Of a stretch of DNA of 64,000 bases, positions 16,433-57,444 are shown in pieces; position 1 is the first letter of the stretch, and every line of letters starts with the position of its first letter. Source of the DNA: a virus. The stretch lies in IMG/VR virus record IMGVR_UViG_3300005563_000033, positions 13,353 through 77,352 of that record. One strand, written 5' to 3'. Under the pieces are notes generated by a model, which saw nothing but the letters and a program-made list of their open reading frames with translations, did not search any database and was not told the DNA's origin. The translations under genes and the position numbers were made by a program.

Positions 16433-17108
16433 GATTGAGCAAATACAAGAAGCTATTTTTTATGCGGAACAAAGACAGTCTAAAATTACGCCACTGGCCT
16501 TGGCCGTTCCGGCATTAAGCTCTTTAAACATTCGCCATTTAATGAATAATTTAGGGGCCATATCCACGCATTATCTTGAACATGGCGTCCATAAAGGAGG
16601 TTTATTCTGCGCAACCGTCTTTAAGAACAACAACCTTATGTCAGCTACAGCGGTGGATAACTTTGAATCAGACGAACATAACGCTGATAAGGCTATGCCG
16701 CAGTTTCTGGAAAATGTAGAAATATGTTTGCCAAAAGAACTGAAAATGGGGTTCGTTCATAGAGAGGAAGAAAATACTTTGACAGAGTGCTTTACGCTCA
16801 TTAAGCGAAATAGTTTCGATGTTTCTCCGGAAGAAATACCGCACAAGATAGACTTATATCTTTTTGATGCAGATCACAGTGAGGATTCGCAATGCCGGGC
16901 CTTAACTCACTTCCTCCCTGCAATGGCAGATGAATTTATTTTTTGCGTAGATGATTGGGATTTTCCAGAAGTGAGTGCCGGAACCCTAAGAGGGATAAAG
17001 GAAACAGGAGTTGAAATATTGTTTTGTCAAATATTCGAAGGGAATGACCACGATAATGACGGCTGGTGGAATGGCTATGCGGTGTTCCTGCTAAAAAAGA
17101 AGGTATGA
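16422..17108 (+). CDS. SAM-dependent methyltransferase (Methyltransf_24-like)
   Basis: YLEHGVHKG, AVDNF, YLFDADHS, CVDDWD, WWNG. Confidence 0.75.
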   Translation: MLSKIEQIQEAIFYAEQRQSKITPLALAVPALSSLNIRHLMNNLGAISTHYLEHGVHKGGLFCATVFKNNNLMSATAVDNFESDEHNADKAMPQFLENVEICLPKELKMGFVHREEENTLTECFTLIKRNSFDVSPEEIPHKIDLYLFDADHSEDSQCRALTHFLPAMADEFIFCVDDWDFPEVSAGTLRGIKETGVEILFCQIFEGNDHDNDGWWNGYAVFLLKKKV

Positions 17109-17857
17109 GCAAACGATTAGGGGGAACGATGTTTGTTATTGATGGCCTAAAATGGGACTACCCTTTCGAAGAGTCTATTTTGTCCATGAAAGAGCATTGT
17201 GATGAAATTATCATTTTAGATGCTGGTTCATTGGATGGAACGGCTCAGGTGTTGAAAAAGTTAGAGGATAAAAAGACCAAAGTAATTTACCTAGATCGTA
17301 CCGAATGGGAAGAACAAAAAGGGTGGCAAAAATTAAATTACTTTTCCAATAAGGCCATTGCGGAACTTACAACCGAATGGAATTGGTATCAGCAATCCGA
17401 CGAAATTCTACATGAGCATTGTTATAACGTACTAAGAGGAGCCATAAATTCAGGCAAAGCAGATAGCTATATGTGTGCTAGGTTCAATCTATGGGCATCC
17501 CCTTACAAGATGATTAATGTTGTCGGGAATAGGAACCCGTGCAGCACTAAAGTTCTAAGACTGGCCAAATCTCAGTATATGACATACGGAGACGCCGAAA
17601 GCATTGCTTGCGACAACGTGAACGAAGACTATGTTAATCGTATTCGATTATATCATATGGGATTTGTAAGGTCAAAAGAAGTACACGCGGCCAAAATAAG
17701 ACACATGCAAGCAGACGTGTTCCAGGTTACGCCGGACGCAAAACTAGAAGGAATGACTACATTTGACCCGTATAAATGGTTTTCCGAGGACGATCTTATC
17801 CCAATTCCAGAACCATTACCCAGAGTCATACAAGAATGGGCAAGAGCTAGGGAATAA
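17105..17857 (+). CDS. GT2-like glycosyltransferase
   Basis: DYPF.ESI.S, ILDAGSLDGT, QQSDEILHE, LYHMG; ATG overlaps the upstream stop. Confidence 0.75.
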   Translation: MSKRLGGTMFVIDGLKWDYPFEESILSMKEHCDEIIILDAGSLDGTAQVLKKLEDKKTKVIYLDRTEWEEQKGWQKLNYFSNKAIAELTTEWNWYQQSDEILHEHCYNVLRGAINSGKADSYMCARFNLWASPYKMINVVGNRNPCSTKVLRLAKSQYMTYGDAESIACDNVNEDYVNRIRLYHMGFVRSKEVHAAKIRHMQADVFQVTPDAKLEGMTTFDPYKWFSEDDLIPIPEPLPRVIQEWARARE

Positions 17858-31117: not shown

Positions 31118-34100
31118 ATGGCTATTGCTCTACATAGATTTGCGGGTGCCATGGATTTGGATAGTCCGGATACAGTCAAACAAAAAGGACTGCATGGCCC
31201 AGCCCGTAATGGCATCTTTCGCGGAGTGCCTGGAAATTATCGGTGGGAGTCTAATGTAGGAAATACTTTACGGGCTAATCCCCTTTTGCCAAATACCGGA
31301 ACGAATAAAAATATAGGCAGGCATTATGACCCGGTTAATCACCGGCTTTTTTCCTTTAACTGGAATAGTACAGGATTTCACGGGATTTACATATATGATA
31401 CGCTCCTATCCACATGGTCTAGGCTGATTCAAACAGGCATTAATACCATTGGAGACCCATTGGCCTTTACAGCTACGGTAAGAGTTCATAGTATTGACAT
31501 TTTATACGGAGATGGGACAGCCGGAGACTTATTATTTTTTGTAGACAGCCAGAAAAGGCCGCGTAAGCTGAATATTCAACGGCTTTTAAATGGTGGGTAT
31601 GTAAATGTAAGGGATAGTTTTCTAAAAGTTATCAAAGCTCCGCCAATACCGCCTCCTAATTGCGTATACGAAAATGACACTACTGTAACAGCTAATAACG
31701 TTATAAACTCATTATTTAATTTCTGCTGTACGCATTTGTATGATGATGCGGAAGAGTCCGTTTTAGGAAGTGCGTGTATTCAGCCATTGCCACCCGATCC
31801 ATTTGACCCTACGAATAATACACCCGCTTCAAGATGCGCCCGCATAGCTATTTACCTGCCAACGGGAGACGCCAATGTAAAAAAGATACGAGTATACGGC
31901 AAGCAAACAAAAGACGGAAACACAACCGATTGGTTTATTATTGATACGCTTATAAAGGCTGATTTGGGAATAGCTGATAATACAGTCTACAGGTATCTAT
32001 TTTTTAATAACGGTAATTATATTCCAGCGGACATTGGTTTTGCTGTTTTGGATCAGGATTATGTTCCCCAAGCAGCCAATACACAATCTCTTATAAACGG
32101 CAGTGTCATTTCCTACGGAGGTATCACAGAGGGGTATAATTTTTTCAATCCGTCCTTTGGGATTACTACTTCTAATGTCAATAGTCCCCAATTCATTGCC
32201 AATGGAACACTATTCTTTGCGGCTTTTAATGGGCAATTTACGGGCAATCAACCGCAATTAACCGTATATTTAACAGGCGTCGGGACTAATGATGGGTTTG
32301 GCAATCCCCAAACATTGGAGAAATCCCCGCTTAACCTTATTGTATCGGCAACTTCCCGATTGGTTTCTATCGTAACAATTATCGACTTTAATTACGTAAA
32401 TTCTACGAACTCCAACAATATACCATTCTTGTTAACCGCACTACAGGCATCGGCGGTAACAGCAGGATGGGTAGTGGTATCTTCAACAGCTAATAGTTTT
32501 ACTGTATATTACCCAACGGGTGTAATTTCTTTAAAATCTTCCCATACAGTAGGGTTTACCAACACATCTCCTTATTCATCTGCGGTTAGCTGTCATTTAC
32601 CCGAATGCGCATACTCTTATGGTGTATTATATAGGGATGCAGATGGTCGTACGAACGGGGTTATTAGCAATGTAACCGGGAATATAAAAACACAAACCAG
32701 AGGGCCAGCCGGCCAGATACCGCAAATACAAATTGGATTAGCCGGTTTTACACCCCCGCTTTGGGCAGCTTATTACGAGATTGTACGAACGGATAATTTG
32801 ACGTACAATAAAAGATTAGAGTGGATAAGCGACTCTGCATATAGCGATATAGCCCAAGTAAGTAATATCAAATATGCATACTTTGGCATCAGTAATATAC
32901 AGTACTACAATGACAGTATAAAAGCTACTGAAGGGGTCGTAAGTTATGGATTTACGCCGGGAGATCGGATTAAGATTACGGGAAGGTATGATGTAAACGG
33001 TAACTTTTTTTCATTGGCATTTGATTATGCTATTTTGGGCGTTACCGTTGATCCGGTGATTAATGGTCAAGTACAACTGGGAACTTTCATTCAAATATCC
33101 TACCCAACGAATGACATAAGCCCTTCTTTTAAATTTGACGGTACGCAAGACTTTTTACAATATCAAGTGCTTATCTACTCGTACAAAGCCTTTGCCGCCA
33201 CCAATCAAAACGTATATTTTCAAGTAGGCCATCAGTATGGTATAGGCAATCCAGGTACCCTAACTGCCTTCCATTATGGCAATACGGCAGATAATCAAGT
33301 AACGCTGACAGACGGGGATGTTTTTTACCGAACGCGGACCGTACCTATTATAAACACCTTCTACATGCCAATGGGTTCCTATGAACAAGGGGACCAATAC
33401 ATGACCATTTGGACCTATGCGGGCGGCATTAATCCTTTATCTGATAACGCTATTTGGAATGTAGGGGGTGACATACAAAGACCAGCTAGTTTAGACGCGG
33501 CTGCGTTCCCGACTTCTGCCAGTGCCGGATGGGTAGTCCAAAACAAGTCAGCCAACCAGTTTAGCGTACGATTAAGAGGGTCGATTACGGCCATTGAAAA
33601 AACGGACCCTAACGGAGCATTTGCGCTGTATGTGAAAGTTGTTCTGCCAGGACAGGCATTTATCTACAATGTAGTTCCTCAAAAACCAGGATTGAAAGTA
33701 GGCGACACGAATTTGTACGAATACGACATAACCATTCCCGTGCCCGCCGGGGGAAAATTGTGGATTGTAGATTATGTGTTGCTGGATATGCTCATAGGCG
33801 GAAGTCCCTTAAGGATAGATATTATCCGGTACATTACACAGAACGTATTTGACTACTCCTTTAGTGATATTTATAAGCTGGTAACCAACTCAGATAATAA
33901 ACCCAACATCATAGATGCAACGGCGTTAAGTACGTATTACAGTACCTTGTTTCGGTTCAGCCAACCAGATCAATTAGGAACTAATATAAATAATTCCAAT
34001 CGTTTTTACTTTAATAACTTTGATGAATTTGATAAATCTTTTGGAGATATTATTAGGATGCGTGTCCGACAAAGGGAGCTTAGGGTTTTTCAATATAGGA

Positions 34101-35095
34101 GGTGTGGCCAAGTAGGAATTTATCAAAAATTCATCAAGGGTAACACGGGATCAAACCAGTTGATAACAACCGATACAATTATTACGCCCAATAACATTCA
34201 TTATTTTGAGGGAGAGTTTGGTATAGGCAACCAGCCGGATAGCTTGTGTAGTTCTGGTTATCAGGACTATTTTGCTGATCCAGTAAAAGGATATTGGTGC
34301 AGACTTTCTTTAAACGGCATAGAACCTATCAGCGAATTGTATAAGGTACAAACATTAGCAGGTAATAGGCTTCCTATCTATCTCAATAATTATAACAATG
34401 TAAGGGGCGGCTACGCTGTTATTTTGGGAGCCTTTAATTTTTGCAAAGACAGGGATGGAGAAGTGATATTTTCTATGCAATCAGGCACAACAAGTGCCGT
34501 ATCTTTTGCCGGACCTAGCAGTACAACCATAACACAAGGCGCTATTTTTGGTATATCTCCAAGTACAATACCAGGAGAATCTATTCAATTTAACGAGTCT
34601 AAAAATGGATGGACTTCTTTTATGGACGTGGACCCGGATAGTATAGTGTGCTGTGAAAACCTGCTTATGAGTTCAGTAAATGGAGAATGGTATACCCATG
34701 ATAATACGTCTGCATATGCCAATTATTTTGGTACTCAGTTCCCATGTAGTATAACTATTCAGATTAACGATAATTTGGTAGAAAAGAAAACTTTTCTTAG
34801 CCTCACAGAAGTGGCGAATCAAATATGGGAATGCCCGTCTATTACAACTAATCTGATGAGCTACGGAACTACTCCGCAGCAAAGTAATTTGGTGGCGGAA
34901 GATTTTGCGGCCTTGGAAAGTACGTTTAATTCTAGTTTTTGGAGAGATGCCAACTCGATTGGTGGCCAATTTAACGGTAATGCTTTGAAGGGGAACTTAA
35001 TTGTTATACAATTCCAAGTGACCAATCCGGCCAATTTCGTAAATTTAACTGACATTTCGGTGCATTACATTGAGTCACGAAGAAACAATAGATAA
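31118..35095 (+). CDS. tail muzzle/stabilisation protein (P22 gp10-like)
   Basis: 1325 aa, F.G.MD.D start, beta-propeller-like, GEFGIG.QP.S, FNE.KNGWTSF, LKGN near C-terminus. Confidence 0.75.
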   Translation: MAIALHRFAGAMDLDSPDTVKQKGLHGPARNGIFRGVPGNYRWESNVGNTLRANPLLPNTGTNKNIGRHYDPVNHRLFSFNWNSTGFHGIYIYDTLLSTWSRLIQTGINTIGDPLAFTATVRVHSIDILYGDGTAGDLLFFVDSQKRPRKLNIQRLLNGGYVNVRDSFLKVIKAPPIPPPNCVYENDTTVTANNVINSLFNFCCTHLYDDAEESVLGSACIQPLPPDPFDPTNNTPASRCARIAIYLPTGDANVKKIRVYGKQTKDGNTTDWFIIDTLIKADLGIADNTVYRYLFFNNGNYIPADIGFAVLDQDYVPQAANTQSLINGSVISYGGITEGYNFFNPSFGITTSNVNSPQFIANGTLFFAAFNGQFTGNQPQLTVYLTGVGTNDGFGNPQTLEKSPLNLIVSATSRLVSIVTIIDFNYVNSTNSNNIPFLLTALQASAVTAGWVVVSSTANSFTVYYPTGVISLKSSHTVGFTNTSPYSSAVSCHLPECAYSYGVLYRDADGRTNGVISNVTGNIKTQTRGPAGQIPQIQIGLAGFTPPLWAAYYEIVRTDNLTYNKRLEWISDSAYSDIAQVSNIKYAYFGISNIQYYNDSIKATEGVVSYGFTPGDRIKITGRYDVNGNFFSLAFDYAILGVTVDPVINGQVQLGTFIQISYPTNDISPSFKFDGTQDFLQYQVLIYSYKAFAATNQNVYFQVGHQYGIGNPGTLTAFHYGNTADNQVTLTDGDVFYRTRTVPIINTFYMPMGSYEQGDQYMTIWTYAGGINPLSDNAIWNVGGDIQRPASLDAAAFPTSASAGWVVQNKSANQFSVRLRGSITAIEKTDPNGAFALYVKVVLPGQAFIYNVVPQKPGLKVGDTNLYEYDITIPVPAGGKLWIVDYVLLDMLIGGSPLRIDIIRYITQNVFDYSFSDIYKLVTNSDNKPNIIDATALSTYYSTLFRFSQPDQLGTNINNSNRFYFNNFDEFDKSFGDIIRMRVRQRELRVFQYRRCGQVGIYQKFIKGNTGSNQLITTDTIITPNNIHYFEGEFGIGNQPDSLCSSGYQDYFADPVKGYWCRLSLNGIEPISELYKVQTLAGNRLPIYLNNYNNVRGGYAVILGAFNFCKDRDGEVIFSMQSGTTSAVSFAGPSSTTITQGAIFGISPSTIPGESIQFNESKNGWTSFMDVDPDSIVCCENLLMSSVNGEWYTHDNTSAYANYFGTQFPCSITIQINDNLVEKKTFLSLTEVANQIWECPSITTNLMSYGTTPQQSNLVAEDFAALESTFNSSFWRDANSIGGQFNGNALKGNLIVIQFQVTNPANFVNLTDISVHYIESRRNNR

Positions 35096-45206: not shown

Positions 45207-45719
45207 ATGCCGATAGTCCCCAACGTATCTTTAGGATCGGTTAACACCGGAGCGACAATCGATCCTAGTGCGATTATCGCTCAAGATATTTCTACGGGTT
45301 CCGATGTGGCTATAGCGTCGCGGCAAATTCTCCTATATACAGTACAGAATGCACAATTTGTCGCGGCTATTCCTTGGCCCTTGGCGACAAATCCAATTAC
45401 AATAAATCCCCTTACGCAAGACATCGCACTTAACTGCGTAATTAATTGGTTAGATGGAAGCGGGAATGTCCTTTATACATTTTCTGCAATACAATCATTT
45501 ACGGGGTATGGGGAGAATTTTGCCTATAATTTAATTCAGACCGAAGAGTCTTCACCCGGCATTTTACAGGATACAAACTATCAGAATTACGTAAATACGC
45601 TTAATAATTATTTAGTTTCTGCTGTAAGAGCTATTTCCGTAGGGCAGAGTTTAAAAAATGCTCAATTGATGATACTGAAAGAGCAATATTTGGTAACTAA
45701 TTCAAATAGGTATTATTAA
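45207..45719 (+). CDS. tail-associated structural protein
   Basis: 170 aa, D.STGSD motif, start of the fibre block. Confidence 0.5.
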   Translation: MPIVPNVSLGSVNTGATIDPSAIIAQDISTGSDVAIASRQILLYTVQNAQFVAAIPWPLATNPITINPLTQDIALNCVINWLDGSGNVLYTFSAIQSFTGYGENFAYNLIQTEESSPGILQDTNYQNYVNTLNNYLVSAVRAISVGQSLKNAQLMILKEQYLVTNSNRYY

Positions 45720-46588
45720 TGCCAAGCGAATACTCTATACAAACCATTTTGTCTATCGCTGATATTAGTCAATATTTGGCCAATGCCGATAATGACAAAC
45801 AAACCTTTTTCAAAGGCGGAACGCTTGATCCACTATTGGGCAGAACTATTTATAGGATAAGAAGGTCTTTGGGATTAAGATTTCAGGCCGCTCCGAACGA
45901 TACAACTTTAAGAGGAACAGCAGAGTATCTTTTATCATTATGTGGGCCTTATGCCTTACAAGCAAAGCAAATATTGAACAATCTGGGCCAATCTCCCCCA
46001 GTGATAACAGGACCAAATAACCAAAGCGTTCTCGTAGGGCAGACCGGAACGTTTAGCGTATCGGTTACAGGAACAGCACCATTCGCTTATCAGTGGTATC
46101 TCAACTCTGTTCTTATACCGGGAGCCACAAGTAGTTCTTATTCTAAAACAAATGCGCAGCTTACTGATAGTGGTGGGGTATATTTCGTAAAAGTAAGCAA
46201 TCCTGCCGCACCTTCAGGAGTATTTAGTAATACAGCTACTTTGACGGTTACGGCTGTATTACAGGGCTTTTTCGCTTATATGGACACTGATCCAGGCCCA
46301 GACTTGCAAGCCAATTTAGACCCATTCACTTATCAATCGACTTTTGCCATAACGCACAATGCCCCCTTTGTAATAACCTTACCGGGAGCCAGTACGCCGA
46401 ATAAATACCTTATTGTAAAAGTTCCTATTGGAGAATCTGTAAAATCAACGTGGTTCAATACTCCGCTGAATAATGGCACTATACCGGATAGCGTATGGCA
46501 GTCATTGATACAATTTGGCGGATTTTCATATTATTACACGCGGGTAGCTGCCAGCATGGACACTTCACAAACTTTAACTCTTTCATAA
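45719..46588 (+). CDS. Ig-domain virion protein
   Basis: PVIT.P.NQSV.VGQT.TFSVSV.GT.PF.YQWY....IPGATSSSY....L.DSG.Y.V.VSN immunoglobulin I-set. Confidence 0.8.
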   Translation: MPSEYSIQTILSIADISQYLANADNDKQTFFKGGTLDPLLGRTIYRIRRSLGLRFQAAPNDTTLRGTAEYLLSLCGPYALQAKQILNNLGQSPPVITGPNNQSVLVGQTGTFSVSVTGTAPFAYQWYLNSVLIPGATSSSYSKTNAQLTDSGGVYFVKVSNPAAPSGVFSNTATLTVTAVLQGFFAYMDTDPGPDLQANLDPFTYQSTFAITHNAPFVITLPGASTPNKYLIVKVPIGESVKSTWFNTPLNNGTIPDSVWQSLIQFGGFSYYYTRVAASMDTSQTLTLS

Positions 46589-47166
46589 TGAATGAATTTG
46601 TAGACATAAAAGGATTCGAAGGTTTTTTTAAAATCAACTCTATTGGTGAGGTATTTAGTTATGACAGGGTTGTAAATACTGGCAACGGATTTTACATTAT
46701 GAAAGCAAAAAAATTAGCCATTGTTATAAGACAAAAATACCCGTCAGTATCATTATGCATGAATGGCGGAAGAGTCAAGAAATTTCTCCACGTGTTATTG
46801 GCAGAGCATTTTATTCCCAATCCGAATAACTTTAAATTTGTTAGGCATTTGAATGATGATAAATTAGATTTTCGGTTGGAAAACCTGGCGTGGGGTACGC
46901 ATGCCGATAACGCCGCAGACGCCATAAGAAATGGTAAATTTGTCTTTTTGAAGCCGGAAAATAATCCTCAAACTGGCAAGAAAGGAAAATTAAGTATGTT
47001 TTATAGGGAGAAGAGCGGTCGCGCAAGACTAGTCTTAGATTTAAATACTGGCATTTTTTATGAAACTGCGAAAGATGCTGCCGAAGCAAAAAATGTTAAA
47101 TACAAGGGACTGGCTAGAAAATTATTAGGGCGCAGAAAAAATAATACAGGAATGGTTTATGTATAA
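46588..47166 (+). CDS. NUMOD4-HNH homing endonuclease
   Basis: DIKGFEG.FKINS.GEV.S (NUMOD4); VRHLNDDK.D.RLENL.WGT..DN; start taken as ATG 46588. Confidence 0.85.
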   Translation: MNEFVDIKGFEGFFKINSIGEVFSYDRVVNTGNGFYIMKAKKLAIVIRQKYPSVSLCMNGGRVKKFLHVLLAEHFIPNPNNFKFVRHLNDDKLDFRLENLAWGTHADNAADAIRNGKFVFLKPENNPQTGKKGKLSMFYREKSGRARLVLDLNTGIFYETAKDAAEAKNVKYKGLARKLLGRRKNNTGMVYV

Positions 47167-47175
47167 ATAATAAAA

Positions 47176-50100
47176 TTGAACGATATGGCTCCAAAAGAAA
47201 GAAGGAGGTTAGGGAATAAATATCCCTCCCTCTTTCTGACGATAATCATACTATTATTATGCGTTAAAGTAAATTCTCAGACGTATAATCCTAGCTTACA
47301 TACGGTTACAAATAAGGCTCTGGGGATAGCGCAAGCAACACCTACGGATGCTCGTAGTATGTTCTATGATCAGACAAATTTTATTTACAGACCCTATCAA
47401 TCTATTGTTGAGGTTAAAACATATTTGAATCTAGCAAAATATCGAACTGGTAATTTCTTAATTGTAGTCGATTCCGGAGGTTTATTGCAACCGAACGGCG
47501 TGTATGTCGGGGGGCATAATAATTTTTGGATGTTTAAAGATTCTACGGCAGATGCAAATCTCATAGAATTAAATCTTCAAGGAAGTTCCGGAAGTTGTGC
47601 TGGATGTCTTTTGGCTGTTAATAATCTAAGTGATTTAGCTAATGCTACAACCGCTCGATCTAACCTTGGCTTAGGTTCCATATCTACATTGTCATCTACC
47701 GCATCAGGAGGTGACGCGTCGGGGAACTGGCCTGCCATCACCGTAAACTCAATTCAAGGGAAGAATTTAGCCTACATAACCAACTATCTCAATTTAAGTA
47801 ACACTCCGGCAATTCCAAGTCAATTAAACCCAACAGGACTAGGTTTAGTAACCATAACGGGGGTATACCCCAATCTTACGTGGACTGGAAGAACACCGGG
47901 AATCGAGGAAACTATTTTCGCGAATAATGCTACGTCTCGAACTGACTCTCTTAATATAGGAGCTTTCTTGTTTAGGATGTATGGTACATCTGCTTTTGGA
48001 CTTCCCAAGGGTACAACAGCACAAAGACCGTCCTCTGCTGCTGCCGGTGACACCAGATGGAATACGGATAGTTTAAAGAAAGAAACATTTGACGGTGCTT
48101 CATGGGTAACAGATGGAAGCGGGGGAGGGGGTGGAGGCGGTATTACAGCCCTTACAGGAGACGGTACGGCATCAGGAACAGGATCAGTACCTTTCACCTT
48201 AGCAACAGTTAATAGTAATGTCTTTGGCTCCAATACCTTTTTGAAATTTGGGGTGAATGGCAAAGGTTTGGTAACAAGTGCGACCGCCGTAGGATCAGGA
48301 GATATTACGGGAGCTTTGGGCTTCACTCCTTATAATGCTACCAATCCGGCAGGATACATTTCTAACATAACAGGACTCGTAACTCAGGGTACGGAAATAA
48401 GTATAACGGGTTCTGGAACGTCTGGGACACCTTACGTAGTCAATTCTAAGGCCAATATCCGGACGGTTAAAACAATAGCCAATTTGTATGCGCTACCTAC
48501 GGCAGGGTTAACGGACAGTGCGGTGGTTGTGGTTACGGATACAGTTGCAGGTGGACCTATGATGTGGATTTCCACTACAACTACTGTAGAAGATTCGGGA
48601 ACAATATTCAAACCAACTGCCATTAGTTCGGGAAGCCCTGGCCGGTGGATACGTCAATACAACGGGTTAAAAAGTTTGCATTTTTGGGGTGTGAACGGCG
48701 ACAATAGCACCAACGTTACAAGACGTACACAGCTTGCTATGAATAGTTGTGTGGGTGGTACTTTATATGTTCCATCGGGGATATACCTGATCGACTCTCT
48801 TATTTATCCAGCGCAATTATCCATGAGAGGGGAAAGCCGTAGGAATACACGCTTCCAGGCAACCGCCAGCGGTGCCCAATCTTTCATACGTCTTGGCCCC
48901 GGTCAGTCTAATGAAATTTATTGGACAGATATATCCATTGTAGCCAATGCCAGTAACGTAGGTCAAAAAGGATTTGACTTTACGGCGGTTCCGGGGTCAA
49001 CTACGGGTGGTTTGTGGAACTTCGAAATGGACAGAGTGGATGTAACGAATTTCAGAGGTACGGGTATTAACCTATACTGTCATGATGGAGCCTTTGATAT
49101 GGCGCATCAATTCCTAACTTTCCGTCAAGTAAGAGTCTATTGTACCACCGATACAGCCTCTCATGCCGTGGTATGGGATGGGCAAGTCAACCAGACAACT
49201 TTTGATGATTGCGAATTCGATTGCCCTAGTTGGGCAGCCGGAACGAGAGGCGTTGTTTTGATTAGTGGAGGCGCAAGCAATGACCAGATCGTAGGAGGCA
49301 ATACTTTTCATAACATATCGGTTCAAGGGTTTGATCAGGCTGTATATACTTATAATGCACAAGGGGTAAGTTTCACGCAGGATTATTTTGAGTCAGACAG
49401 CGTTGGCATCTATGCCACCAATAGTTCCCGCATTACCGTGTACGACATTCACCTGTCCAATGTAGGTAACACCAGATACGTGTTTGGGAATGACAATAGC
49501 GTAATGGACATTCTAGGATACCGGCTAACTCCCAACCCCATCACCGGAAAATTCTATACCTCTCCGGGCGGAACTTCGGGCGGCGGCGTTATTCAACGTG
49601 GTGTTGGGCAAACAACCAATACCGTAACAACTGTTTTTACCGGGCAGAACATAAACGTCTCTGCTAACACCTTAAACACGGGTTATTTTACCGACATTAT
49701 AACCAACGTAAGCAGTTCTGTATCCAGCTATGTAACGACCATTAACAGCAATCTTAGCCCAACGGAGCATCTTTTTATAAGAGCTTATGACGCATCTCAT
49801 ACCAGCAATAATGCTTTGTTATTTAAATCGGGCGGTAATATATCTCTTCCCGGTAGTTTAGATAGCGGAATGCTGGTATTGCATGACGGACAATCGGCAG
49901 AGTTTGCACGTACTGACATTGGCACTAGTGTATGGGCTTTGGTGCCTTCGTCTATTACGCCCTTATACATGAGTGCCTTTCCAACTACTGGCTTGTGGAT
50001 TACTGGCAACGTTGTTTATAACAGCAATCCAACTTTCGGAACGGCTGGGATATGGGTATGTAAGAAAGGGGGCATTGGAGCAGCAGCTTTATGGGATAGT

Positions 50101-53100
50101 CTTGTAGTGGGAGCAGGGGGCGGAAGCGGAGGGACTAATTCAAATGTGGGTTCCGGGTATCGCTTGGCAATACCGACCACCAACAATATAAAAACTATTT
50201 TTGGTAGCACTTTTATTTCGTGGGATTCTACTTCAAATACCAATGCGCTGACCTCTAAAATAGCCAATGGAACCGCTAATAATATACTGGGTTGGGATGG
50301 GTCTGGGAATCCAGCTTCGTTAGCCCCCGATACTTTGTTTGTAAAAAATAGAGTGTCAGGAACAGGGGTTCAAGTAGGGAATATATCAAACGACACGCTG
50401 TATTTGAATAATCTAAACGGCAGCACCTTCATATCGCAGGCGAAAAATTCCGACAGTTCCATAACAACCGCAATAGCCAATTCTACGGCCAATACTCTTT
50501 TAGGGTGGAATGGGTCCGGAGTACCGACGAATATAACAGCAGGATCAGGAATCACAATATCTGGTGGCGTTATAAGTTCAAGTGGTGGCTCTAGCGCCTT
50601 AACCAATACGCATATTTTCGTAGGAAACGCCTCTAACATAGCCACAGACGTAGCCTTGAGTGGAGACGCTACAATAGCCAATACAGGAGCTTTAACGATT
50701 GCCAGCAATGCTATAACTACTGGTAAAATAAACAATAACGCTGTAACATACGGTAAGTTACAGGCCGCTTCTGGGCAGTCTTTATTAGGAGCTACAGGGG
50801 CTGGTAATTTTCAAGAACTCACATTAGGCACCAATCTTTCCATATCTGGAACTACTCTTAATGCTGCGGGCAGCGGAACGGACACGATAACGCAGGCGAC
50901 AGCCCCATTACGGATTACCAGAGCGAGCAATGTAGTCACTATAGGCGGCGACAGTCTGTTGAATAAATACAATTCCAATTATGCTACCACGCAGAGAATA
51001 CAATATTATCAGCCTGCATCAGGCGTTAATGGCACGTCGGATACGGTAACTAATTATGGGTGGGCAAATATAGACTCCGCTCTTTCTTATTATACAACAG
51101 TAGGAAAAGGCGCTGACTTTGGCGGCTGGCTGGTGAATAGTACGTCAAATGATTCCGTTCAGTTATTGACACCCATTGGGGTTTATATAGGCAATTCTTT
51201 TGCGGCCGCCCATCCTTGGTTTACTGGTCCGCTAGAACAACCGGGTGGATGGAATCCTACGATTGCTGATCCTTGGGGAACAACTACGCATACTTTGGAT
51301 AGCCTAACGCATTATAAGTGGTACGGTATGGGGATCGGCGGGCAGACTACCTCTCAGATGCGTTCTCGATTTTTACGTGATGTGCTTGGGCTTCCCTCTA
51401 ATCCCAATGACGGACTAGGAAGTCGAACGATTGGTCGAAAAGCTTCTTTTGCAATTATCGAGGGTGCAATAAATGACCTTGCTGCTGGGGTATCAGATAG
51501 TATTGTTCGGGATAATTTAGTTTGGATGGCCGAAACCTGCCTACAATATCAAGTTCCTTGCGTGATGTTGAACTGCCCTGGTGACGGGTCTGGCACAACT
51601 AAATCTTATTACCAAGCCATCGCCAGACTGAATAAGTGGATGGCTTCCGGCATATTGCAATCCTTGGGTGTAACGGTAATCGATTTAAACAAGCTATGGA
51701 ACACAGCTGAGATGAACAACTACAATTTTAGCTCTTATGTAAACTCGGGAGACAAAATACATCTGACAAAGACTGGATATGATACCTTGGGAAAAATAAT
51801 ATTTTTTAATGCAAATATACCCGTCTTAACAAAGGCAGTTATTATAAAAGCGAACTCTCCAACCAATCCAATATCTGGCTACAACGTGCCCACAGGTATT
51901 ACATTTACAGGAGTAAGCTATTCTCTAACTTCTAATCCCATAGATACGATAGCCATTACATCGTATATAACGGATTCTGTTTGGATGAAAATAACCAGCT
52001 CGTCCGGCGCTGGAAGTAAAACGGGCGTTAATTCCGTATTGTGGTATATCGATAACGATCCGACGAACGCATTTATGTATACGGAAAGAACAGCCTTTTC
52101 CGGTCCGCATCTTCCTTTCTCTAACATGTCTTCCTTGAATATCCGTGCAAAAGATTATACTGTTGGGTTAAGGCTCATAGATGTAATGGGGAATGATAAT
52201 GTTTATAACCATTTACGATTAATAGGCGGACAAAGTGCCAGCACAAATATGATTATAAATGGGGGCGCTAGTCCATCCGTGCTTAACAGCTCAGCCTTGA
52301 CTGTTTATGGGCATTTATCATTAAATACCGGGAGTAATATTTTCGTTCCGGGTTTTGGATCGACGATAGGTAACTTACAAATTGGCAACACCTCCAATCC
52401 AAGTACGTTAGGGAGAGGTGTTGGATATATTAACTCCGCGATGGATTTTCAAGCTGGTCAAGGATCATCGATGGCTAGTGAGGTTATGCGGTTTTCACCG
52501 TTCAGTAATACCGTGTATACGATTACGAGCAGCTCCACCCGTTTTCCAATGCACAAGTTCAATGGAGGATTGGGTAATGGAACCGACAGAGATACAGTAT
52601 CATTAATGGGGACAAACTTCCAATGGAACAACACGGAAACGGGCAATGTTATACCGGGTTTTCGTGGGATATTGGATTTGCATTCCACTATACTTTCAAG
52701 GGGAACGTCCAATAGATTTTATAGCATCTGGGCAGAGAATGGAGACAACTGGTTGAATACGGTTACAGGCAAAACCTCTATCGGCACCATAAATCCAGCG
52801 GGTTCAGCTAAATTAGACGTTACCAGCAGAACAAGAGGATTTATACTGCCAAGGATGCGTCAAGGTCAACGTGATAGTATAGGATATATAGGAGCCGTAA
52901 ATATTACTACTGCCGGGACTGGATATACTACGGTTCCAGTCCAGACAATCACAGGCACAGGGACGGGGGCTGTAATAAATTTCATGTTGTCTGGTGGAGG
53001 TATTGCAACTCCCACAATCATCGATCCGGGAGAAGGGTATAAGCCGGGATCGAGTATAAGTATCGCTTTCTCTGGTGGGGGCGGTTCCGGGGCTGCGGCT

Positions 53101-54150
53101 ACGTTAACGATAAATGGACCGGATAGTGGGCTGATGATTTATAATACGACCGTAGATTCACTTCAATGGTATAAGCCATCTTGCGCTTGTTGGATAGACG
53201 CAGGTGACGGCGGACAAAATATATACAATGCAGACGGAACGCTTACGGGTAATAGAACTTTATCGGGTGCCAATTTTACGTTGGCTTTGGGTACATCCGG
53301 CAGCAAGCTATCTAATCTATCCATATGGTCTACCGCAGGCGTTAACTTAACAGGGGGACAATACGCTAGTACGGGCGGTTCTCAACTTTTGGAAGTGGCA
53401 TCCACTATAAATAATCCGGTCACAGCGGCCAGCGGCACAGTAAGTAATTTTTCTGCTTATTTGTTTTCAGCCCCTACGATTACGAGTACGAATTCAAGCA
53501 TTACCTATTCTAGCCCAGCCACTCTAAGAATAGACAATCAGCCGACTATGAGTACTAACTCTACTGCGACTGGCAGATTGTTGGCTTTGGATGTAGCAGC
53601 TGGGATAACACATATGGGGGTTGGGTCGTCTAATTTTTCTCTCATAGCTGATGGGTATGCTTATTTTGATGGAGCCTCACCCACCAATACTATAGGAGTG
53701 GGATTCGGGCTATCAACATCTAGTCACGCCACCTTGAACCTTCCGGCAGGTACGGACCCGTCTACAGGAGGCGTTAACACCGCTAGCGGGAATATGTGGT
53801 ATAACGGCACTAATCTATATTTTGTAGATGGCAGCACGAACGGTGTTAAAAGGGATATATTGAACGGCATTCATAATTACCTACATTCAATATCAACTCC
53901 GGCTACCGGCGGAACGGTGAACTTAGTAGCTAATCAGTATAATATTATAAATCCATCTGGGACCATCGCTACGTTGACAGTTAATTTACCGTCTAGCCCC
54001 AACAATAATGACGTAGTTTATATAAAATACACACAAGCCGTTACAACAGTTACTTACGGTAACGGCACCGTTGTGGACGGCATAACAACGCCTAGTGCCG
54101 GTGGGTTGGTAGTACTAACTTTCGACAGCGGCACATCCAGCTGGTATTAA
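47176..54150 (+). CDS. giant tail fibre/spike with pectin-lyase-like beta-helix and SGNH esterase; N-terminal signal peptide
   Basis: NNLSDLAN..TARSNLGLG fibre motif; WGV.GD...LYVPSGIY beta-helix start; GNS/GIGG.T/GAIND/D.IH SGNH blocks; SAKLDVTS.TRGFILPRM. Confidence 0.8.
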   Translation: MNDMAPKERRRLGNKYPSLFLTIIILLLCVKVNSQTYNPSLHTVTNKALGIAQATPTDARSMFYDQTNFIYRPYQSIVEVKTYLNLAKYRTGNFLIVVDSGGLLQPNGVYVGGHNNFWMFKDSTADANLIELNLQGSSGSCAGCLLAVNNLSDLANATTARSNLGLGSISTLSSTASGGDASGNWPAITVNSIQGKNLAYITNYLNLSNTPAIPSQLNPTGLGLVTITGVYPNLTWTGRTPGIEETIFANNATSRTDSLNIGAFLFRMYGTSAFGLPKGTTAQRPSSAAAGDTRWNTDSLKKETFDGASWVTDGSGGGGGGGITALTGDGTASGTGSVPFTLATVNSNVFGSNTFLKFGVNGKGLVTSATAVGSGDITGALGFTPYNATNPAGYISNITGLVTQGTEISITGSGTSGTPYVVNSKANIRTVKTIANLYALPTAGLTDSAVVVVTDTVAGGPMMWISTTTTVEDSGTIFKPTAISSGSPGRWIRQYNGLKSLHFWGVNGDNSTNVTRRTQLAMNSCVGGTLYVPSGIYLIDSLIYPAQLSMRGESRRNTRFQATASGAQSFIRLGPGQSNEIYWTDISIVANASNVGQKGFDFTAVPGSTTGGLWNFEMDRVDVTNFRGTGINLYCHDGAFDMAHQFLTFRQVRVYCTTDTASHAVVWDGQVNQTTFDDCEFDCPSWAAGTRGVVLISGGASNDQIVGGNTFHNISVQGFDQAVYTYNAQGVSFTQDYFESDSVGIYATNSSRITVYDIHLSNVGNTRYVFGNDNSVMDILGYRLTPNPITGKFYTSPGGTSGGGVIQRGVGQTTNTVTTVFTGQNINVSANTLNTGYFTDIITNVSSSVSSYVTTINSNLSPTEHLFIRAYDASHTSNNALLFKSGGNISLPGSLDSGMLVLHDGQSAEFARTDIGTSVWALVPSSITPLYMSAFPTTGLWITGNVVYNSNPTFGTAGIWVCKKGGIGAAALWDSLVVGAGGGSGGTNSNVGSGYRLAIPTTNNIKTIFGSTFISWDSTSNTNALTSKIANGTANNILGWDGSGNPASLAPDTLFVKNRVSGTGVQVGNISNDTLYLNNLNGSTFISQAKNSDSSITTAIANSTANTLLGWNGSGVPTNITAGSGITISGGVISSSGGSSALTNTHIFVGNASNIATDVALSGDATIANTGALTIASNAITTGKINNNAVTYGKLQAASGQSLLGATGAGNFQELTLGTNLSISGTTLNAAGSGTDTITQATAPLRITRASNVVTIGGDSLLNKYNSNYATTQRIQYYQPASGVNGTSDTVTNYGWANIDSALSYYTTVGKGADFGGWLVNSTSNDSVQLLTPIGVYIGNSFAAAHPWFTGPLEQPGGWNPTIADPWGTTTHTLDSLTHYKWYGMGIGGQTTSQMRSRFLRDVLGLPSNPNDGLGSRTIGRKASFAIIEGAINDLAAGVSDSIVRDNLVWMAETCLQYQVPCVMLNCPGDGSGTTKSYYQAIARLNKWMASGILQSLGVTVIDLNKLWNTAEMNNYNFSSYVNSGDKIHLTKTGYDTLGKIIFFNANIPVLTKAVIIKANSPTNPISGYNVPTGITFTGVSYSLTSNPIDTIAITSYITDSVWMKITSSSGAGSKTGVNSVLWYIDNDPTNAFMYTERTAFSGPHLPFSNMSSLNIRAKDYTVGLRLIDVMGNDNVYNHLRLIGGQSASTNMIINGGASPSVLNSSALTVYGHLSLNTGSNIFVPGFGSTIGNLQIGNTSNPSTLGRGVGYINSAMDFQAGQGSSMASEVMRFSPFSNTVYTITSSSTRFPMHKFNGGLGNGTDRDTVSLMGTNFQWNNTETGNVIPGFRGILDLHSTILSRGTSNRFYSIWAENGDNWLNTVTGKTSIGTINPAGSAKLDVTSRTRGFILPRMRQGQRDSIGYIGAVNITTAGTGYTTVPVQTITGTGTGAVINFMLSGGGIATPTIIDPGEGYKPGSSISIAFSGGGGSGAAATLTINGPDSGLMIYNTTVDSLQWYKPSCACWIDAGDGGQNIYNADGTLTGNRTLSGANFTLALGTSGSKLSNLSIWSTAGVNLTGGQYASTGGSQLLEVASTINNPVTAASGTVSNFSAYLFSAPTITSTNSSITYSSPATLRIDNQPTMSTNSTATGRLLALDVAAGITHMGVGSSNFSLIADGYAYFDGASPTNTIGVGFGLSTSSHATLNLPAGTDPSTGGVNTASGNMWYNGTNLYFVDGSTNGVKRDILNGIHNYLHSISTPATGGTVNLVANQYNIINPSGTIATLTVNLPSSPNNNDVVYIKYTQAVTTVTYGNGTVVDGITTPSAGGLVVLTFDSGTSSWY

Positions 54151-54153
54151 AAT

Positions 54154-55752
54154 ATGAAGACAATTTTAACTATACTGTTTTCTTGGGCTTTTATTGCCAA
54201 TGCTCAAACCGTCAAACAGGTCGTTCAAGCCGAATACAGAGTGTGGTATGTGTATTCTGATTCCACCGTTAAAGGCTATTCAAATAACGGCGGGGCACAT
54301 ATAAAAACATGGCAAGAGCCTTCCGGTTTTCATTGGAAAGTCGTCACACCTGCTTTCAACTACATGAATGTAATTGATAGATTCGGGTACATATGGCAAA
54401 GTAAAATTTTCTTTTTAGACAATAAGGATAGCTTCTGGCGGGTAGATACCGATACAACCGGAGCCGCCTTTAATGGTAACTGGTATATTACGTACTTCGA
54501 TTTTGCCAACATGACACTCCGGTCTGACTCAACACCGTGGTATTTTGGGCAAGATAACTATAGCTTCTTCTATGCAGGCGGAAATCTTGATCCTTGGACC
54601 GGCACCAACATGAAGCCCACACAATTTTCTACAGCCAAGCTGCGGAAGATCGTCATGGGATACAATCACATCGTAGGGTTGAGCAGCGACGGACTTACCG
54701 TATATGAATGGGTGCCCCCCAGCCGTACGCCCCATCAGACTATCTCGCTTCCAAGGCCAGGCGTAGATGTTTTTGTAGCATCCAGTGACTTCTGGGGCTA
54801 CATAATGCCGGACGCAACGGGGTCCCAGACAATGGGTTATCCGTACGTTGCCGGAACAAGCACAAGTCTATACGGTGGTTCTACTGCCTTTACTACGCCA
54901 ACATCAATAAAAGCTCTTTGGGGCCTTACGCAGCCCATAAAGAAATTTGATGTGGATTGGCAAGCGATACATTTTATAGATAGCTCTGGGCGTCTTTGGG
55001 GTTGCGGGTGGAACTCCTTTGGAGAAGTGGGTAATGGGGTGGAATTCGTGGGACGGTATACTTACCAGGGAGGTAACTTCTCTTACGGCTGGCCGCTCAA
55101 CAACGGCGAAAATCCATCAGGCATCCCGGTCAAGATAGGCGACACAACAAAGAACGATTGGCAAGATATATGGTCAACTAATTGGTTCGGGACCACGAAA
55201 GGCGCACGGGATTCGAGAGATAGCATATACACGTGGGGACGTAACAAGGCCAATGTCATGGGGAATGGCCTTCAGAACAACATTTGGTTAAAAGACACTT
55301 CCAATATGGACCAGTTCCACTACAACGCCATAGATATAATAACCCCCACGATTGTTACCCCAATTTCGCAAACGACCACTTTAGTAAACGGGCGACCCCC
55401 CACCGTAAATGCACTCAATCAAAGCATAAGTACATCCAGCACTACCATTACGACAACCGGTAATATGCTGAAAGTAATGACGGTTGCCGACACCACCAAT
55501 GTTATTTGTTGTGCTATTGCTTCCCATGCTTGGACTCAGATAAGCGGTCCCAATACAGCAACCCTTACCAATGCTAATACACAAACCGTTACAGCCTCTA
55601 ATCTTATCAATGGAACATATGTTTTTCAAGATTTCGTATCCGACAATCACAGTGGACAAGATACAGTACAGACGCATATAACAGTCTCAATTTCGGCAGC
55701 TCAACCTTGGATTCATCACAATAGAAAATTCAAAACCAAGCAACTTCCGTAA
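54154..55752 (+). CDS. exported RCC1-like propeller + PKD-type domain protein
   Basis: signal MKTILTILFSWAFIANA then Q; LWGCGWNSFGEVGNG and YTWGRN..MGNG RCC1 repeats; WTQISGP...GTYVFQ..V.DN. Confidence 0.75.
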   Translation: MKTILTILFSWAFIANAQTVKQVVQAEYRVWYVYSDSTVKGYSNNGGAHIKTWQEPSGFHWKVVTPAFNYMNVIDRFGYIWQSKIFFLDNKDSFWRVDTDTTGAAFNGNWYITYFDFANMTLRSDSTPWYFGQDNYSFFYAGGNLDPWTGTNMKPTQFSTAKLRKIVMGYNHIVGLSSDGLTVYEWVPPSRTPHQTISLPRPGVDVFVASSDFWGYIMPDATGSQTMGYPYVAGTSTSLYGGSTAFTTPTSIKALWGLTQPIKKFDVDWQAIHFIDSSGRLWGCGWNSFGEVGNGVEFVGRYTYQGGNFSYGWPLNNGENPSGIPVKIGDTTKNDWQDIWSTNWFGTTKGARDSRDSIYTWGRNKANVMGNGLQNNIWLKDTSNMDQFHYNAIDIITPTIVTPISQTTTLVNGRPPTVNALNQSISTSSTTITTTGNMLKVMTVADTTNVICCAIASHAWTQISGPNTATLTNANTQTVTASNLINGTYVFQDFVSDNHSGQDTVQTHITVSISAAQPWIHHNRKFKTKQLP

Positions 55753-55991
55753 TGGATGAGAAAGAAATACAAATACGGGGTATAGTACTCATGGAAGAGA
55801 TGAGTAAAAAAGTAAATACCATTGAAATAAAAGTGGATTCTATTTACAATGAAAAAATCCATACCCTTGACAAAAGACAGGGAATTACAGAGGATAAAGT
55901 TTCTAGGATTGAAAAAATGTTTTACGGATCAATCATGATAATAATAGCGCAGGCTATTGGATTGGTATTCTTATGGATTCAAAAAAAGTAA
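55752..55991 (+). CDS. XhlA-like holin candidate
   Basis: coiled coil plus one C-terminal TM helix and basic tail. Confidence 0.55.
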   Translation: MDEKEIQIRGIVLMEEMSKKVNTIEIKVDSIYNEKIHTLDKRQGITEDKVSRIEKMFYGSIMIIIAQAIGLVFLWIQKK

Positions 55992-55992
55992 A

Positions 55993-56400
55993 ATGGAGAT
56001 AGAAAAAGAAATACGAGAATTGAAAGTGCTGGCAATGCGCAACGCCAAGCCCATCTTTGACGAACAAATAACGCGGTGTGTAAGCGCCATCATCGTTGAT
56101 CTTTCAGATGGAACGATCCTCTATTCTACACCGCCGTCCAATGATTTATTTGGGTATGTAAATGGGGGACTAGACGGGAAAAACATAACCGATTTGATGC
56201 CGGAAAGATTCAGAGTAAAGCACAAGGGACACTTAGCGCACTTTGCTCATGCGCCCAAAATAAGACAAATGGGAGAATCTGAAATGGCCCTTTACGGTCT
56301 TCACACAGACGGATCAGAGTTTAAGATAGAAATAAGCCTATACCCTACTGAAATAATAAATACCCGATGTGCCGTAGCCACTATTTTGAAGATGAGATAA
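55993..56400 (+). CDS. stand-alone PAS domain protein (FixL-like)
   Basis: LFGY....L.GKNI.DLMPERFR..H....F...P..R.MG....LYGL..DGSEF.IEISL. Confidence 0.85.
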   Translation: MEIEKEIRELKVLAMRNAKPIFDEQITRCVSAIIVDLSDGTILYSTPPSNDLFGYVNGGLDGKNITDLMPERFRVKHKGHLAHFAHAPKIRQMGESEMALYGLHTDGSEFKIEISLYPTEIINTRCAVATILKMR

Positions 56401-56432: not shown

Positions 56433-56780
56433 ATGAGCCCATTCTGGACCGAAGTACTTGGAAAGGATAACGATCCTAATGTTTTAGGAGCCGCATTCTT
56501 CTTTGCCCTCATAGGTATTTTCATTACGCTCCTTTTAGGCACATATGCCAGGGTGCCCGTTTCGCCAAATAGCCCTACTAAATTTTCTTGGTCGTATTTA
56601 TGGTCGGATAATTTCAAAAGAATAATAGCTACTCTTTTAATGGTGGTCGTTTCTCTTAGATTCATTCATGATCTTTTTGGATTTGAATTAAGTGCTTGGC
56701 ATGGGTTTGTCATTGGAACCGGATGGGACGGGCTCGCATTTTTGATAAAACAAAAAACGCGTTTGCTTGACCCGAAATAA
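56433..56780 (+). CDS. holin-like membrane protein (about 3 TM)
   Basis: three hydrophobic segments, basic C-terminus. Confidence 0.55.
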   Translation: MSPFWTEVLGKDNDPNVLGAAFFFALIGIFITLLLGTYARVPVSPNSPTKFSWSYLWSDNFKRIIATLLMVVVSLRFIHDLFGFELSAWHGFVIGTGWDGLAFLIKQKTRLLDPK

Positions 56781-57444
56781 CCTCATAGCATATATCATAA
56801 TAGGAGCGGCTATTGCTATAGGTTTAATCATTGGATTAAGGGGATGTGAAAGAAAGCCGGGGCCAGATCATGCTGTAGATAAAGCAGTGATAGATAGTAT
56901 AACGAATAAAGCGCATAAGGATAGTGCTGTAGCGGCTAAAATAACAGCAGTTTTAACAGATTCATTAAGTAAGCTCCGGCATGCTAATGATTCCTTAGAA
57001 ATAGATCAAAAATGGCAAGAAGGAATGGTATTAGATAAGGCGACACGCTTGAAATGGTTGATACGTAAAATAGACTCTCTGAAAGCTAAAAATGATACAC
57101 TGGGTCAATTAGCCGGATGTGACTCATTGAGGGATTTATATGAAGGCGCGGCCAAAATTGTAGGCGGGTATGAATATCTTTCTGATAGTCTTATTGATCG
57201 TCTGAAGTCAGAAAGAAAACTCTCCGATAGCGTAAAGAATTATCTTTACTCCATGTTTAGCCAATCCAATAACGATCTATTTGAGATTTCCAGAAAATAT
57301 AACAATCTTTACGAAGATTATAAAAAAGTGAATGTTAGACCAAAACGATGGAGTTTAGGGCCTTCGGCAGGGGCATTTATTACTAATAATGGAGTTGGGT
57401 ACGGTATTGGCATTACACTTTCTTATTCCATATTAAAGTTCTGA
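56767..57444 (+). CDS. spanin-like protein
   Basis: N-terminal hydrophobic/LRGC, long coiled coil, C-terminal amphipathic beta hairpin ending in Phe. Confidence 0.55.
   Translation: MTRNNLIAYIIIGAAIAIGLIIGLRGCERKPGPDHAVDKAVIDSITNKAHKDSAVAAKITAVLTDSLSKLRHANDSLEIDQKWQEGMVLDKATRLKWLIRKIDSLKAKNDTLGQLAGCDSLRDLYEGAAKIVGGYEYLSDSLIDRLKSERKLSDSVKNYLYSMFSQSNNDLFEISRKYNNLYEDYKKVNVRPKRWSLGPSAGAFITNNGVGYGIGITLSYSILKF

Follow-up and report, generated by a model that had tools for sequence, protein, structure and literature searches.

The window analysed here is a stretch of 64,000 bases (bases 13353-77352) of a linear IMG/VR virus record of 77,352 bases (IMGVR_UViG_3300005563_000033), for which CheckV gave a completeness of 67%. 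It contains two adjacent genes on the plus strand, one for a tail fibre- or tailspike-like protein and the next for a protein with RCC1 and PKD domains (the RCC1+PKD protein), whose products both start with a Sec-type signal peptide and are both enriched in D-[ST]-[AILVMT], the O-glycosylation sequon of Bacteroidota. Because a host secretion signal and an excess of sequons are found on the fibre as well as on the product of the next gene, the sequences indicate that the host-recognition gear of this phage very probably matures outside the cytoplasm. In the accepted view, all components of a tailed-phage virion are made in the cytoplasm; what is new here is a tail fibre apparently routed through the export and glycosylation pathway of the host, of which no description was found in the literature.

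A preliminary description of this DNA had proposed that the two proteins are exported, possibly glycosylated and disulfide-bonded, and then either attached to virions at lysis or displayed by the infected cell. The leaders and the sequons support its first half, i.e. export and selection for O-glycosylation; for display, no sorting signal was found, either as a C-terminal domain (CTD) for type IX secretion (T9SS) or as a lipobox.

Signal peptide and predicted cleavage site of the fibre

The open reading frame 47176-54150 would encode 2324 aa if read from a TTG codon. Since close homologues start with MAPQERRR or MAPKERRR, the true start is ATG 47185, three codons past the TTG, and the protein is 2321 aa long. 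Its N-terminus consists of a basic n-region (MAPKERRRLGNKYP), a hydrophobic, uncharged h-region of 13 residues (SLFLTIIILLLCV) and the site KVNS/Q (the slash marks the predicted cut), with V at -3, S at -1 and Gln35 as the predicted +1 residue. The succession of KERRR..K, the h-region and V-N-S is the layout of a Sec/signal peptidase I substrate, and the leader was modelled by AlphaFold2 (AF2) as a helix over residues 3-30. The leader noticed in the preliminary description is therefore a canonical one.

47185..47277, plus strand: fibre signal peptide of 31 aa, counted from ATG 47185, with cleavage at VNS/Q (sequence and homologue conservation)

When the first 330 residues of the fibre were used as query in an exhaustive HMMER search, 1489 cluster representatives were recovered at E<=1e-3, that is, an N-domain family of about 1500 clusters at 50% identity. 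In the query and its 150 best homologues (151 sequences), a crude rule-based caller found a leader in 144 and Gln at +1 in 139. The leader sequence drifts freely across these homologues; what stays is the basic start, the hydrophobic core, A, G or S at -1, and the Gln. Judged from the alignments, drift of this kind with the physico-chemistry kept is typical of a signal peptide rather than of a structural element. The predicted mature N-terminus, QTYNPS, is conserved in homologues, and the relatives without a leader (L005, L006, L009, L010, L015, P0148 and P0150) begin with M-[SA]-[YF]NPS, at or beside the predicted +1 residue. These leaderless relatives act as a natural experiment that, at the level of sequence, settles the predicted cleavage before the Gln.

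The preliminary description had left room for a true start downstream of the hydrophobic segment. This is ruled out: past the h-region no in-frame start codon occurs before M62, and more than 140 homologues conserve residues 35-61, which leaves no room for a downstream start or for a leaderless isoform made from the fibre gene. Other export routes were rejected as well. The LLLC of the fibre does not fit a lipobox and its Cys29 is not conserved among homologues, which speaks against a lipoprotein; the consensus twin-arginine motif of a Tat signal is absent from the homologues. As to T9SS cargo, Pfam and NCBIfam gave no match to a T9SS CTD (PF18962/TIGR04183 or type B) at E<=5, either in the whole fibre or in its last 199-316 aa, in agreement with the preliminary description, and the best matches of the C-terminal fold are phage spike domains.

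Gln at +1 of exported proteins is known as the Q-rule of Bacteroidota (PMC5837995, PMC10653852), and the 54 of 116 predicted leaders that expose Gln in a sampled Chitinophagaceae genome fit this rule. The leader signal and its conservation are read directly from the sequences; Sec export itself, with cleavage before the Gln, is what we infer from them, and we regard it as highly probable.

Enrichment in O-glycosylation sequons

Sequons were counted as D-[ST]-[AILVMT], and the expected count of the fibre was taken from 2000 composition shuffles. The hand count of about 25 sequons in the preliminary description proved exact: the fibre (P0001) has 25 against 9.1 +/- 2.8 expected (2.7x), a number reached by none of the 2000 shuffles. 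In 25/32 cases its D[ST] dipeptides are followed by A, I, L, V, M or T (binomial P 2.5e-5); among X-[ST]-[AILVMT] tripeptides, Asp is the most over-represented X (2.73x), and D-[ST] followed by any other residue is depleted (0.54x). The RCC1+PKD protein (P0002) contains 7 sequons against 2.1 expected (P 0.002).

The same excess runs through the family and follows the leader. The 144 leader-predicted fibre homologues hold 1605 sequons against 636 expected (ratio 2.52, per-protein median 2.49), whereas leaderless family members hold 13 against 18.1 (ratio 0.72). Other leader+Gln proteins adjoining fibre genes have 60 against 26 (ratio 2.31); in the leaderless, cytoplasmic proteins that these phages encode, 148 were counted and 154 expected (ratio 0.96). 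As external controls, the cytoplasmic fibres of Cellulophaga phage phi38:1 gave 6 against 8.0 expected, and the structural and fibre proteins of cyanophage S-RIM2 27 against 26.5; pooled with the T4 long tail fibres, the external fibre controls have a ratio of about 1.1. Host proteins from the sampled Chitinophagaceae genome show a ratio of 1.6 with a leader and 1.1 without. The preliminary description had suggested a comparison with the cytoplasmic muzzle protein of the phage; the corresponding leaderless, muzzle-like protein of 1325 aa (31118-35095) has 9 sequons against 4.2 expected. This virion protein weakly matches the family of the C-terminal domain of the crAss muzzle (PF25729, E 6e-4, below the cut-off) and is similar to gp114 and gp115 of Cellulophaga phage phi18:3.

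The residues around the sequon carry a fingerprint of their own. After D[ST], the leader-bearing family is enriched in L, V, I, T and A (2.2-1.3x) and depleted in P, E, H, D, Q and N (to 0.07-0.33x), and at the first position Asp reaches 2.46x, against 0.55x for Glu and 0.95x for Asn; the leaderless control set is flat. The third-position preference found here is the published specificity of Bacteroidota O-glycosylation, a system in which nearly all sequons of non-cytoplasmic proteins are occupied, and motifs engineered into exported proteins are glycosylated (PMC12871550).

With a canonical and conserved cleavage site, no possible start further downstream, and sequons enriched over shuffles, cytoplasmic proteins and leaderless relatives alike, export of the fibre family and selection on it for O-glycosylation by the host are well supported. 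The selection is seen in the sequon counts themselves; the attachment of glycans to at least some of the sequons is probable, given export.

Architecture of the fibre

The product of the fibre gene is fibre- or tailspike-like. Its N-domain is common to the whole family, and the middle parts are mosaic, as seen in a coverage map. From the mature N-terminus onward the following parts were recognized:

47278..47580, plus strand: conserved domain at the N-terminus of the mature fibre (aa 35-~135), starting QTYNPS (HMMER family, alignments, AF2)
47581..48462, plus strand: shaft region, containing a CxxC that is conserved, a run of Gly and a fibre motif of GTTAQRP type common to cyanophage fibre-like proteins
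48463..50100, plus strand: probable right-handed beta-helix, tailspike/pectate-lyase-like, as a lead from ESM Atlas language-model look-alikes
50716..50868, plus strand: DUF5907 fibre repeats (PF19264, E 4.4e-7)
51259..51783, plus strand: GDSL/SGNH esterase domain, aa ~1362-1536 (PF13472, E 4.1e-12)
53878..54147, plus strand: C-terminal beta-sandwich of phage spike/T4 gp10 type, last ~90 aa, ending SWY (AF2 predicted local distance difference test, pLDDT, 85-96)

The N-domain, which defines the family and is presumed to be the anchor to the particle, is modelled confidently (AF2 pLDDT ~90, model residues 51-135). In a tblastn search with the N-terminal 327 aa it was not found in cultured phages, the short GTTAQRP-type motif in cyanophages being the sole match.

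Whole-protein scans of the fibre with Pfam, PHROG and NCBIfam returned nothing, and the SGNH domain and DUF5907 emerged only from cut pieces. The SGNH domain named in the preliminary description was recovered in this way with 47.4 bits against a curated cut-off of 32.9, so that by family match it would be an esterase; the region also has a weak PDB match to 3p94. The beta-helix named there stands in part: look-alikes in the ESM Atlas belong to PF12708/PF27114 (Pect-lyase_RHGA_epim/Phage_tail_beta; score 0.95-0.92), but the Pfam scan of the fibre pieces gave no beta-helix match. Residues ~960-1250 are common to many homologues. The close Cys pairs noted earlier are present as CAGC (141/144) and CAC (2003/2005).

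The C-terminal domain superposes on residues 80-173 of CBA120 TSP4 with Z 9.0 and a root-mean-square deviation of 2.6 A over 86 residues (VIA). The six best Z scores are 9.0, 8.8, 8.7, 8.1, 7.8 and 7.6, including a Klebsiella KP1 baseplate protein (8.8), a Pseudomonas Pa223 spike (8.1) and an Acinetobacter tailspike (7.6); five of the six are phage spike, tailspike or baseplate proteins, the other being 6o38 (7.8), and from the seventh onward Z is 5.1 and below. T4 gp10 and gp9 are among its Foldseek matches. On the modelled fold, this domain resembles a phage spike module rather than a T9SS sorting domain. Its sequence recurs: the last 90 residues are up to 83% identical in more than 25 otherwise different fibres.

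The RCC1+PKD protein

The gene that follows the fibre gene begins with MKTILTILFSWAFIANA/Q, composed of MK, then TILTILFSWAFI, then A-N-A, with Gln18 at +1. The second leader of the preliminary description is upheld by conservation, since most homologues also have Gln at +1.

54154..54204, plus strand: RCC1+PKD protein, signal peptide of 17 aa (ANA/Q), kept in nearly all of 80 homologues
54205..55752, plus strand: mature protein with an RCC1-like beta-propeller and K319L-like PKD domains, 7 sequons (Pfam PF25390/PF13540/PF22352)

No match was found for this protein in cultured phages. Its bacterial matches, in Puia sp. and other Chitinophagaceae-like bacteria, show 47-48% identity. The bacterial homologues (875-910 aa) carry the T9SS sorting domain PF18962, whereas the phage forms (~530 aa) are without it and have 5-7 sequons against about 2 expected. 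By its sequence, the RCC1+PKD protein is the phage form of a T9SS cargo family of Chitinophagaceae with the CTD missing, and is apparently a surface protein captured from the host, which would now stop in the periplasm.

The phage and its host

Besides the fibre, the window encodes a large terminase (19666-21735), a portal protein (21785-24214), further virion proteins and a giant protein of 2135 aa. The best matches of the terminase (~25% identity) are podophages of Cellulophaga, Maribacter and Flavobacterium; the nearest cultured relative is Cellulophaga phage phi18:3, with 26.7% identity in TerL (E 6e-50). A megablast search with the region of interest gave no match to cultured phages.

A related element lies inside a 2.68-Mb Chitinophagaceae contig (L022/L023, G008:C3:2548000-2587999), where it adjoins terminase, portal and virion genes. 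The host therefore belongs to the Bacteroidota and most likely to the Chitinophagaceae, on the combined evidence of this element, of the bacterial matches of the RCC1+PKD protein and of the relatives of the terminase.

The element, which is a probable prophage and serves as the clue to the host, has a terminase, a portal and a giant protein of 2319 aa, then three consecutive leader+Gln genes (878, 228 and 857 aa), followed by genes for a holin-like protein, a lipoprotein and an endolysin-like protein. That the fibre gene might be bacterial rather than phage was considered and rejected, as its N-domain is present in only 3/301 Chitinophagaceae genomes, and the site examined, that in G008, is beside phage structural genes.

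Comparison with known systems

Phage phi18:3 (Pachyviridae, KC821620.1) shares the terminase, the portal and the muzzle-like protein with the phage described here, and has leader+Gln proteins in the same position. Its gp085, gp086 and gp087 (L025 5892-11584), with leaders GYS/Q, VSA/Q and LNA/Q, lie just upstream of lysis genes (small membrane proteins and a glycosyl hydrolase). Their PHROG matches are a tail protein, a tail fiber protein and a virion structural protein, and GenBank labels them as structural proteins by experimental tandem mass spectrometry (MS/MS) proteomics; according to this annotation, leader-bearing proteins of the fibre position do occur in purified phi18:3 particles. 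They have no sequence similarity to the present fibre, and no discussion of their leaders was found in the literature.

The substrates of Bacteroidota O-glycosylation have the same Sec leader, Gln at +1, sequon and third-position preference (PMC12871550, PMC5837995, PMC10653852). They differ in that those known are cellular proteins, phages being absent from the review (PMC12871550); the sequon density found here, moreover, is 2.5-2.7x, compared with 1.6x in the sampled exported proteins of the host. For Sec-routed or host-O-glycosylated fibres of tailed phages, the nearest case found in the literature concerns Porphyromonas gingivalis phages, whose leader and Q-rule genes of unassigned function likewise fit Sec and signal peptidase I; these were read as host-modifying, with no link to fibres or glycosylation, and the term 'tail fiber' is absent from the paper (PMC10367356). 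The mosaic adhesive trimer (MAT) fibres of Bdellovibrio bacteriovorus also have a signal peptide directly followed by a conserved N-domain of ~130 aa, and then mosaic phage-like parts, but they are bacterial surface fibres, of a host outside the Bacteroidota, with no sequon system. Since such phage-like trimeric fibres are exported by Sec, folding of a fibre after export is feasible (PMC10769870).

CBA120 TSP4 and T4 gp10 share the sandwich fold, and enzyme domains on a fibre; they differ in having no leader and in folding in the cytoplasm, and in TSP4 the sandwich is N-terminal, whereas here it is C-terminal. Filamentous phages have in g3p a Sec-exported, disulfide-bonded receptor-binding protein, but the Ff phages have no tail, and their assembly takes place at the membrane and involves no lysis. 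In some mycobacteriophages the capsid and tail bear glycans, attached in the cytoplasm by phage-encoded transferases.

Proposed maturation pathway and alternatives

We propose that the fibre is a receptor-binding fibre or tailspike which would be made as a pre-protein and sent, with the RCC1+PKD protein, through the Sec translocon of the host. Signal peptidase I would cut after VNS in the former and after ANA in the latter, exposing a Gln that would then become pyroglutamate. The general O-glycosylation system of the host would load the sequons in the periplasm, where the fibre would also fold, and fibreless particles would assemble in the cytoplasm. Only when holin and spanin open the envelope would the two pools meet, with the N-domain docking the glycosylated fibre on the tail. 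The likely benefit is stability of the exposed fibre towards proteases and the environment.

Given the architecture of the fibre and the phi18:3 proteins detected by MS/MS, it is moderately probable that the fibre is a virion part joining the tail once the envelope opens; the whole chain from export through glycosylation to docking at lysis we consider marginally probable. More tentatively, a large group of Bacteroidota phages might practise two-compartment assembly, in which head and tail are cytoplasmic and the whole recognition module is matured in the periplasm and joined at lysis. The module would then consist of the fibre and 1-3 accessory lectin-like proteins, pyroglutamate-capped, O-glycosylated and assembled in the periplasm.

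Several observations weigh against the proposed pathway. The sequon excess of the fibre has a P of only ~0.009 when the 1.6x of host exported proteins is taken as baseline, and the family counts are not fully independent, the homologues sharing ancestry. Some leader-bearing homologues are not enriched (5th percentile 0.93), and the T4 long tail fibres, with 19 sequons against 11.2 (1.7x, the highest control), call for caution with any single protein. The phi18:3 proteins gp085-087 are even sequon-poor (1 against 3.6, 1 against 3.1 and 1 against 2.9; in total 3 against 9.6). Because these leader-bearing proteins and some fibre homologues lack the enrichment, export and selection for glycosylation must be regarded as separable and not universal. 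In addition, the MS/MS detection of the phi18:3 proteins is compatible with an unremoved leader or with co-purification. For the N-domain, fold searches with Foldseek (PDB and BFVD) and VIA wide brought up nothing convincing (best Z 2.9), the weak matches being mostly N-termini of podophage tailspikes.

The main alternative, which we consider rather unlikely, accepts export and glycosylation but holds that the proteins are never on the particle and serve the infected cell as factors that are either free or bound to its envelope. They might provide a receptor-destroying esterase or depolymerase, working against superinfection, for release, or against the sticking of progeny to debris, and in the RCC1+PKD protein one would see a surface protein captured from the host. 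The fibre does have domains of enzymatic type (SGNH and the probable beta-helix); its C-terminal domain, however, matches virion spike and baseplate modules, and a conserved N-domain, mosaic distal parts and a fixed place after an Ig-like gene make up the layout of a receptor-binding protein. The identity of the RCC1+PKD protein to Chitinophagaceae T9SS cargo and the host-modifying reading of the Porphyromonas phage genes (PMC10367356) point to cellular factors, yet no cell-surface sorting signal was found (T9SS CTD by Pfam/NCBIfam; lipobox). Virion docking is a proposed step here; on the other side, the same N-domain occurs leaderless in other phages, no other fibre candidate is seen in the record, and phi18:3 has leader-bearing proteins in its virions by MS/MS.

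It is also conceivable, but improbable, that the hydrophobic N-terminus stays uncleaved, as a signal anchor in the inner membrane, or is a lipoprotein or T9SS signal for surface display. The n-region is long and very basic, and a close RCC1+PKD homologue (L002 17715-19376) starts with a hydrophobic stretch but shows no evident cleavage site. An anchor would not account for the -3/-1 rule and the Gln at +1 kept in 139 homologues, nor for leaderless relatives that begin at +1 or +2; surface display is made less likely by a Cys29 that is neither in a lipobox nor conserved, by the lack of a T9SS CTD match in Pfam and NCBIfam and by a C-terminal fold that matches phage spike domains. That the leader is unused and the fibre an ordinary cytoplasmic one, its sequons a by-product of composition or structure as the T4 fibres and the muzzle-like protein might suggest, is very improbable in view of the ratio of 0.72 in leaderless against 2.52 in leader-bearing family members, of a third-position fingerprint (P, E, Q, H and D strongly depleted) absent from the controls, of the pooled external controls at about 1.1, and of a drifting yet functional-looking leader which selection must have kept over hundreds of clusters.

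If the proposed pathway is correct, it adds a new step to phage morphogenesis, in which the fibre crosses a membrane first and joins the particle at or after lysis. Infectivity would then depend on the glutaminyl cyclase, the Sec system and the O-glycosylation system of the host, which would open up a class of host factors and of routes to resistance that is new, and many Bacteroidota phages of soil, water and gut would bear host-type glycans on their fibres, with consequences for host range, for stability against the proteases that these bacteria secrete and for recognition by antibodies and lectins. Receptor-binding proteins of this kind produced in E. coli would be neither correctly exported nor glycosylated. 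The size of the family makes it a widespread feature rather than a curiosity.

Gene neighbourhood and other proteins with export signals

The genes are ordered as a structural module, the fibre, and then holin- and spanin-like genes, the fibre being the last structural gene before the lysis genes and the only fibre-like gene seen in the record. The position between tail and lysis genes given in the preliminary description is thus borne out by these neighbours, with the reservation that no endolysin gene was identified in the window. Loci of relatives came from an alignment-based scan of viral contigs, a single-protein scan having found none. In 14 loci and in the prophage, the fibre gene always comes after a homologue of an Ig-like gene, and in relatives it is followed by 1-3 further leader+Gln genes and then small membrane proteins.

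45719..46588, plus strand: Ig-like protein, conserved upstream neighbour of the fibre gene (PHROG and Pfam Ig matches, synteny in 14 loci)
46495..47166, plus strand: HNH endonuclease gene between the Ig-like and fibre genes, overlapping the end of the Ig-like gene (phrog_59, E 1.6e-33)
56767..57444, plus strand: membrane-anchored coiled-coil, spanin-like protein after the holin-like gene, with a C-terminal DUF6808

The Ig-like protein is a candidate docking partner of the fibre. A homologue with 40% identity, on the minus strand of a contig of Chitinophagaceae genome G120 (L020 1892-2749), has a leader of its own, SFA/Q. Since in relatives L002 and L003 the fibre gene directly follows the Ig-like gene with no HNH gene in between, the HNH endonuclease gene looks like a recent mobile insertion.

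The spanin-like protein contains 9 sequons where 0.8 would be expected, and each D-[ST] in it is part of one; gp084 of phi38:1, a similar small protein after an amidase, has 3 against 0.3. From these counts, glycosylation may extend to the periplasmic lysis proteins of Bacteroidota phages. Between the RCC1+PKD and holin-like genes, 55957-56400 encodes a small protein with a weak PAS match (E 3e-4, below the cut-off).

Four overlapping genes (14433-17857), none with a leader, precede the packaging genes. The first matches DUF5672 and, weakly, GT9, the second no family, the third a methyltransferase (PF13578) and the fourth a GT2 glycosyltransferase. Their products could alter a host glycan, perhaps that on exported proteins, and under two-compartment assembly this cassette may tailor the glycan that ends up on the fibres. 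Three small genes (12183-12599, 13486-13899 and 13896-14120) carry export signals, namely one leader (CFG/Q) and two lipoprotein-like starts, and by these signals would encode exported accessory proteins beyond the fibre module. The border between the parts predicted to be exported and those predicted to be cytoplasmic differs from phage to phage: in L020 even the Ig-like homologue bears a leader, and in L005, L006 and L015 a leader is found on the gene after the fibre N-domain but not on the N-domain itself.

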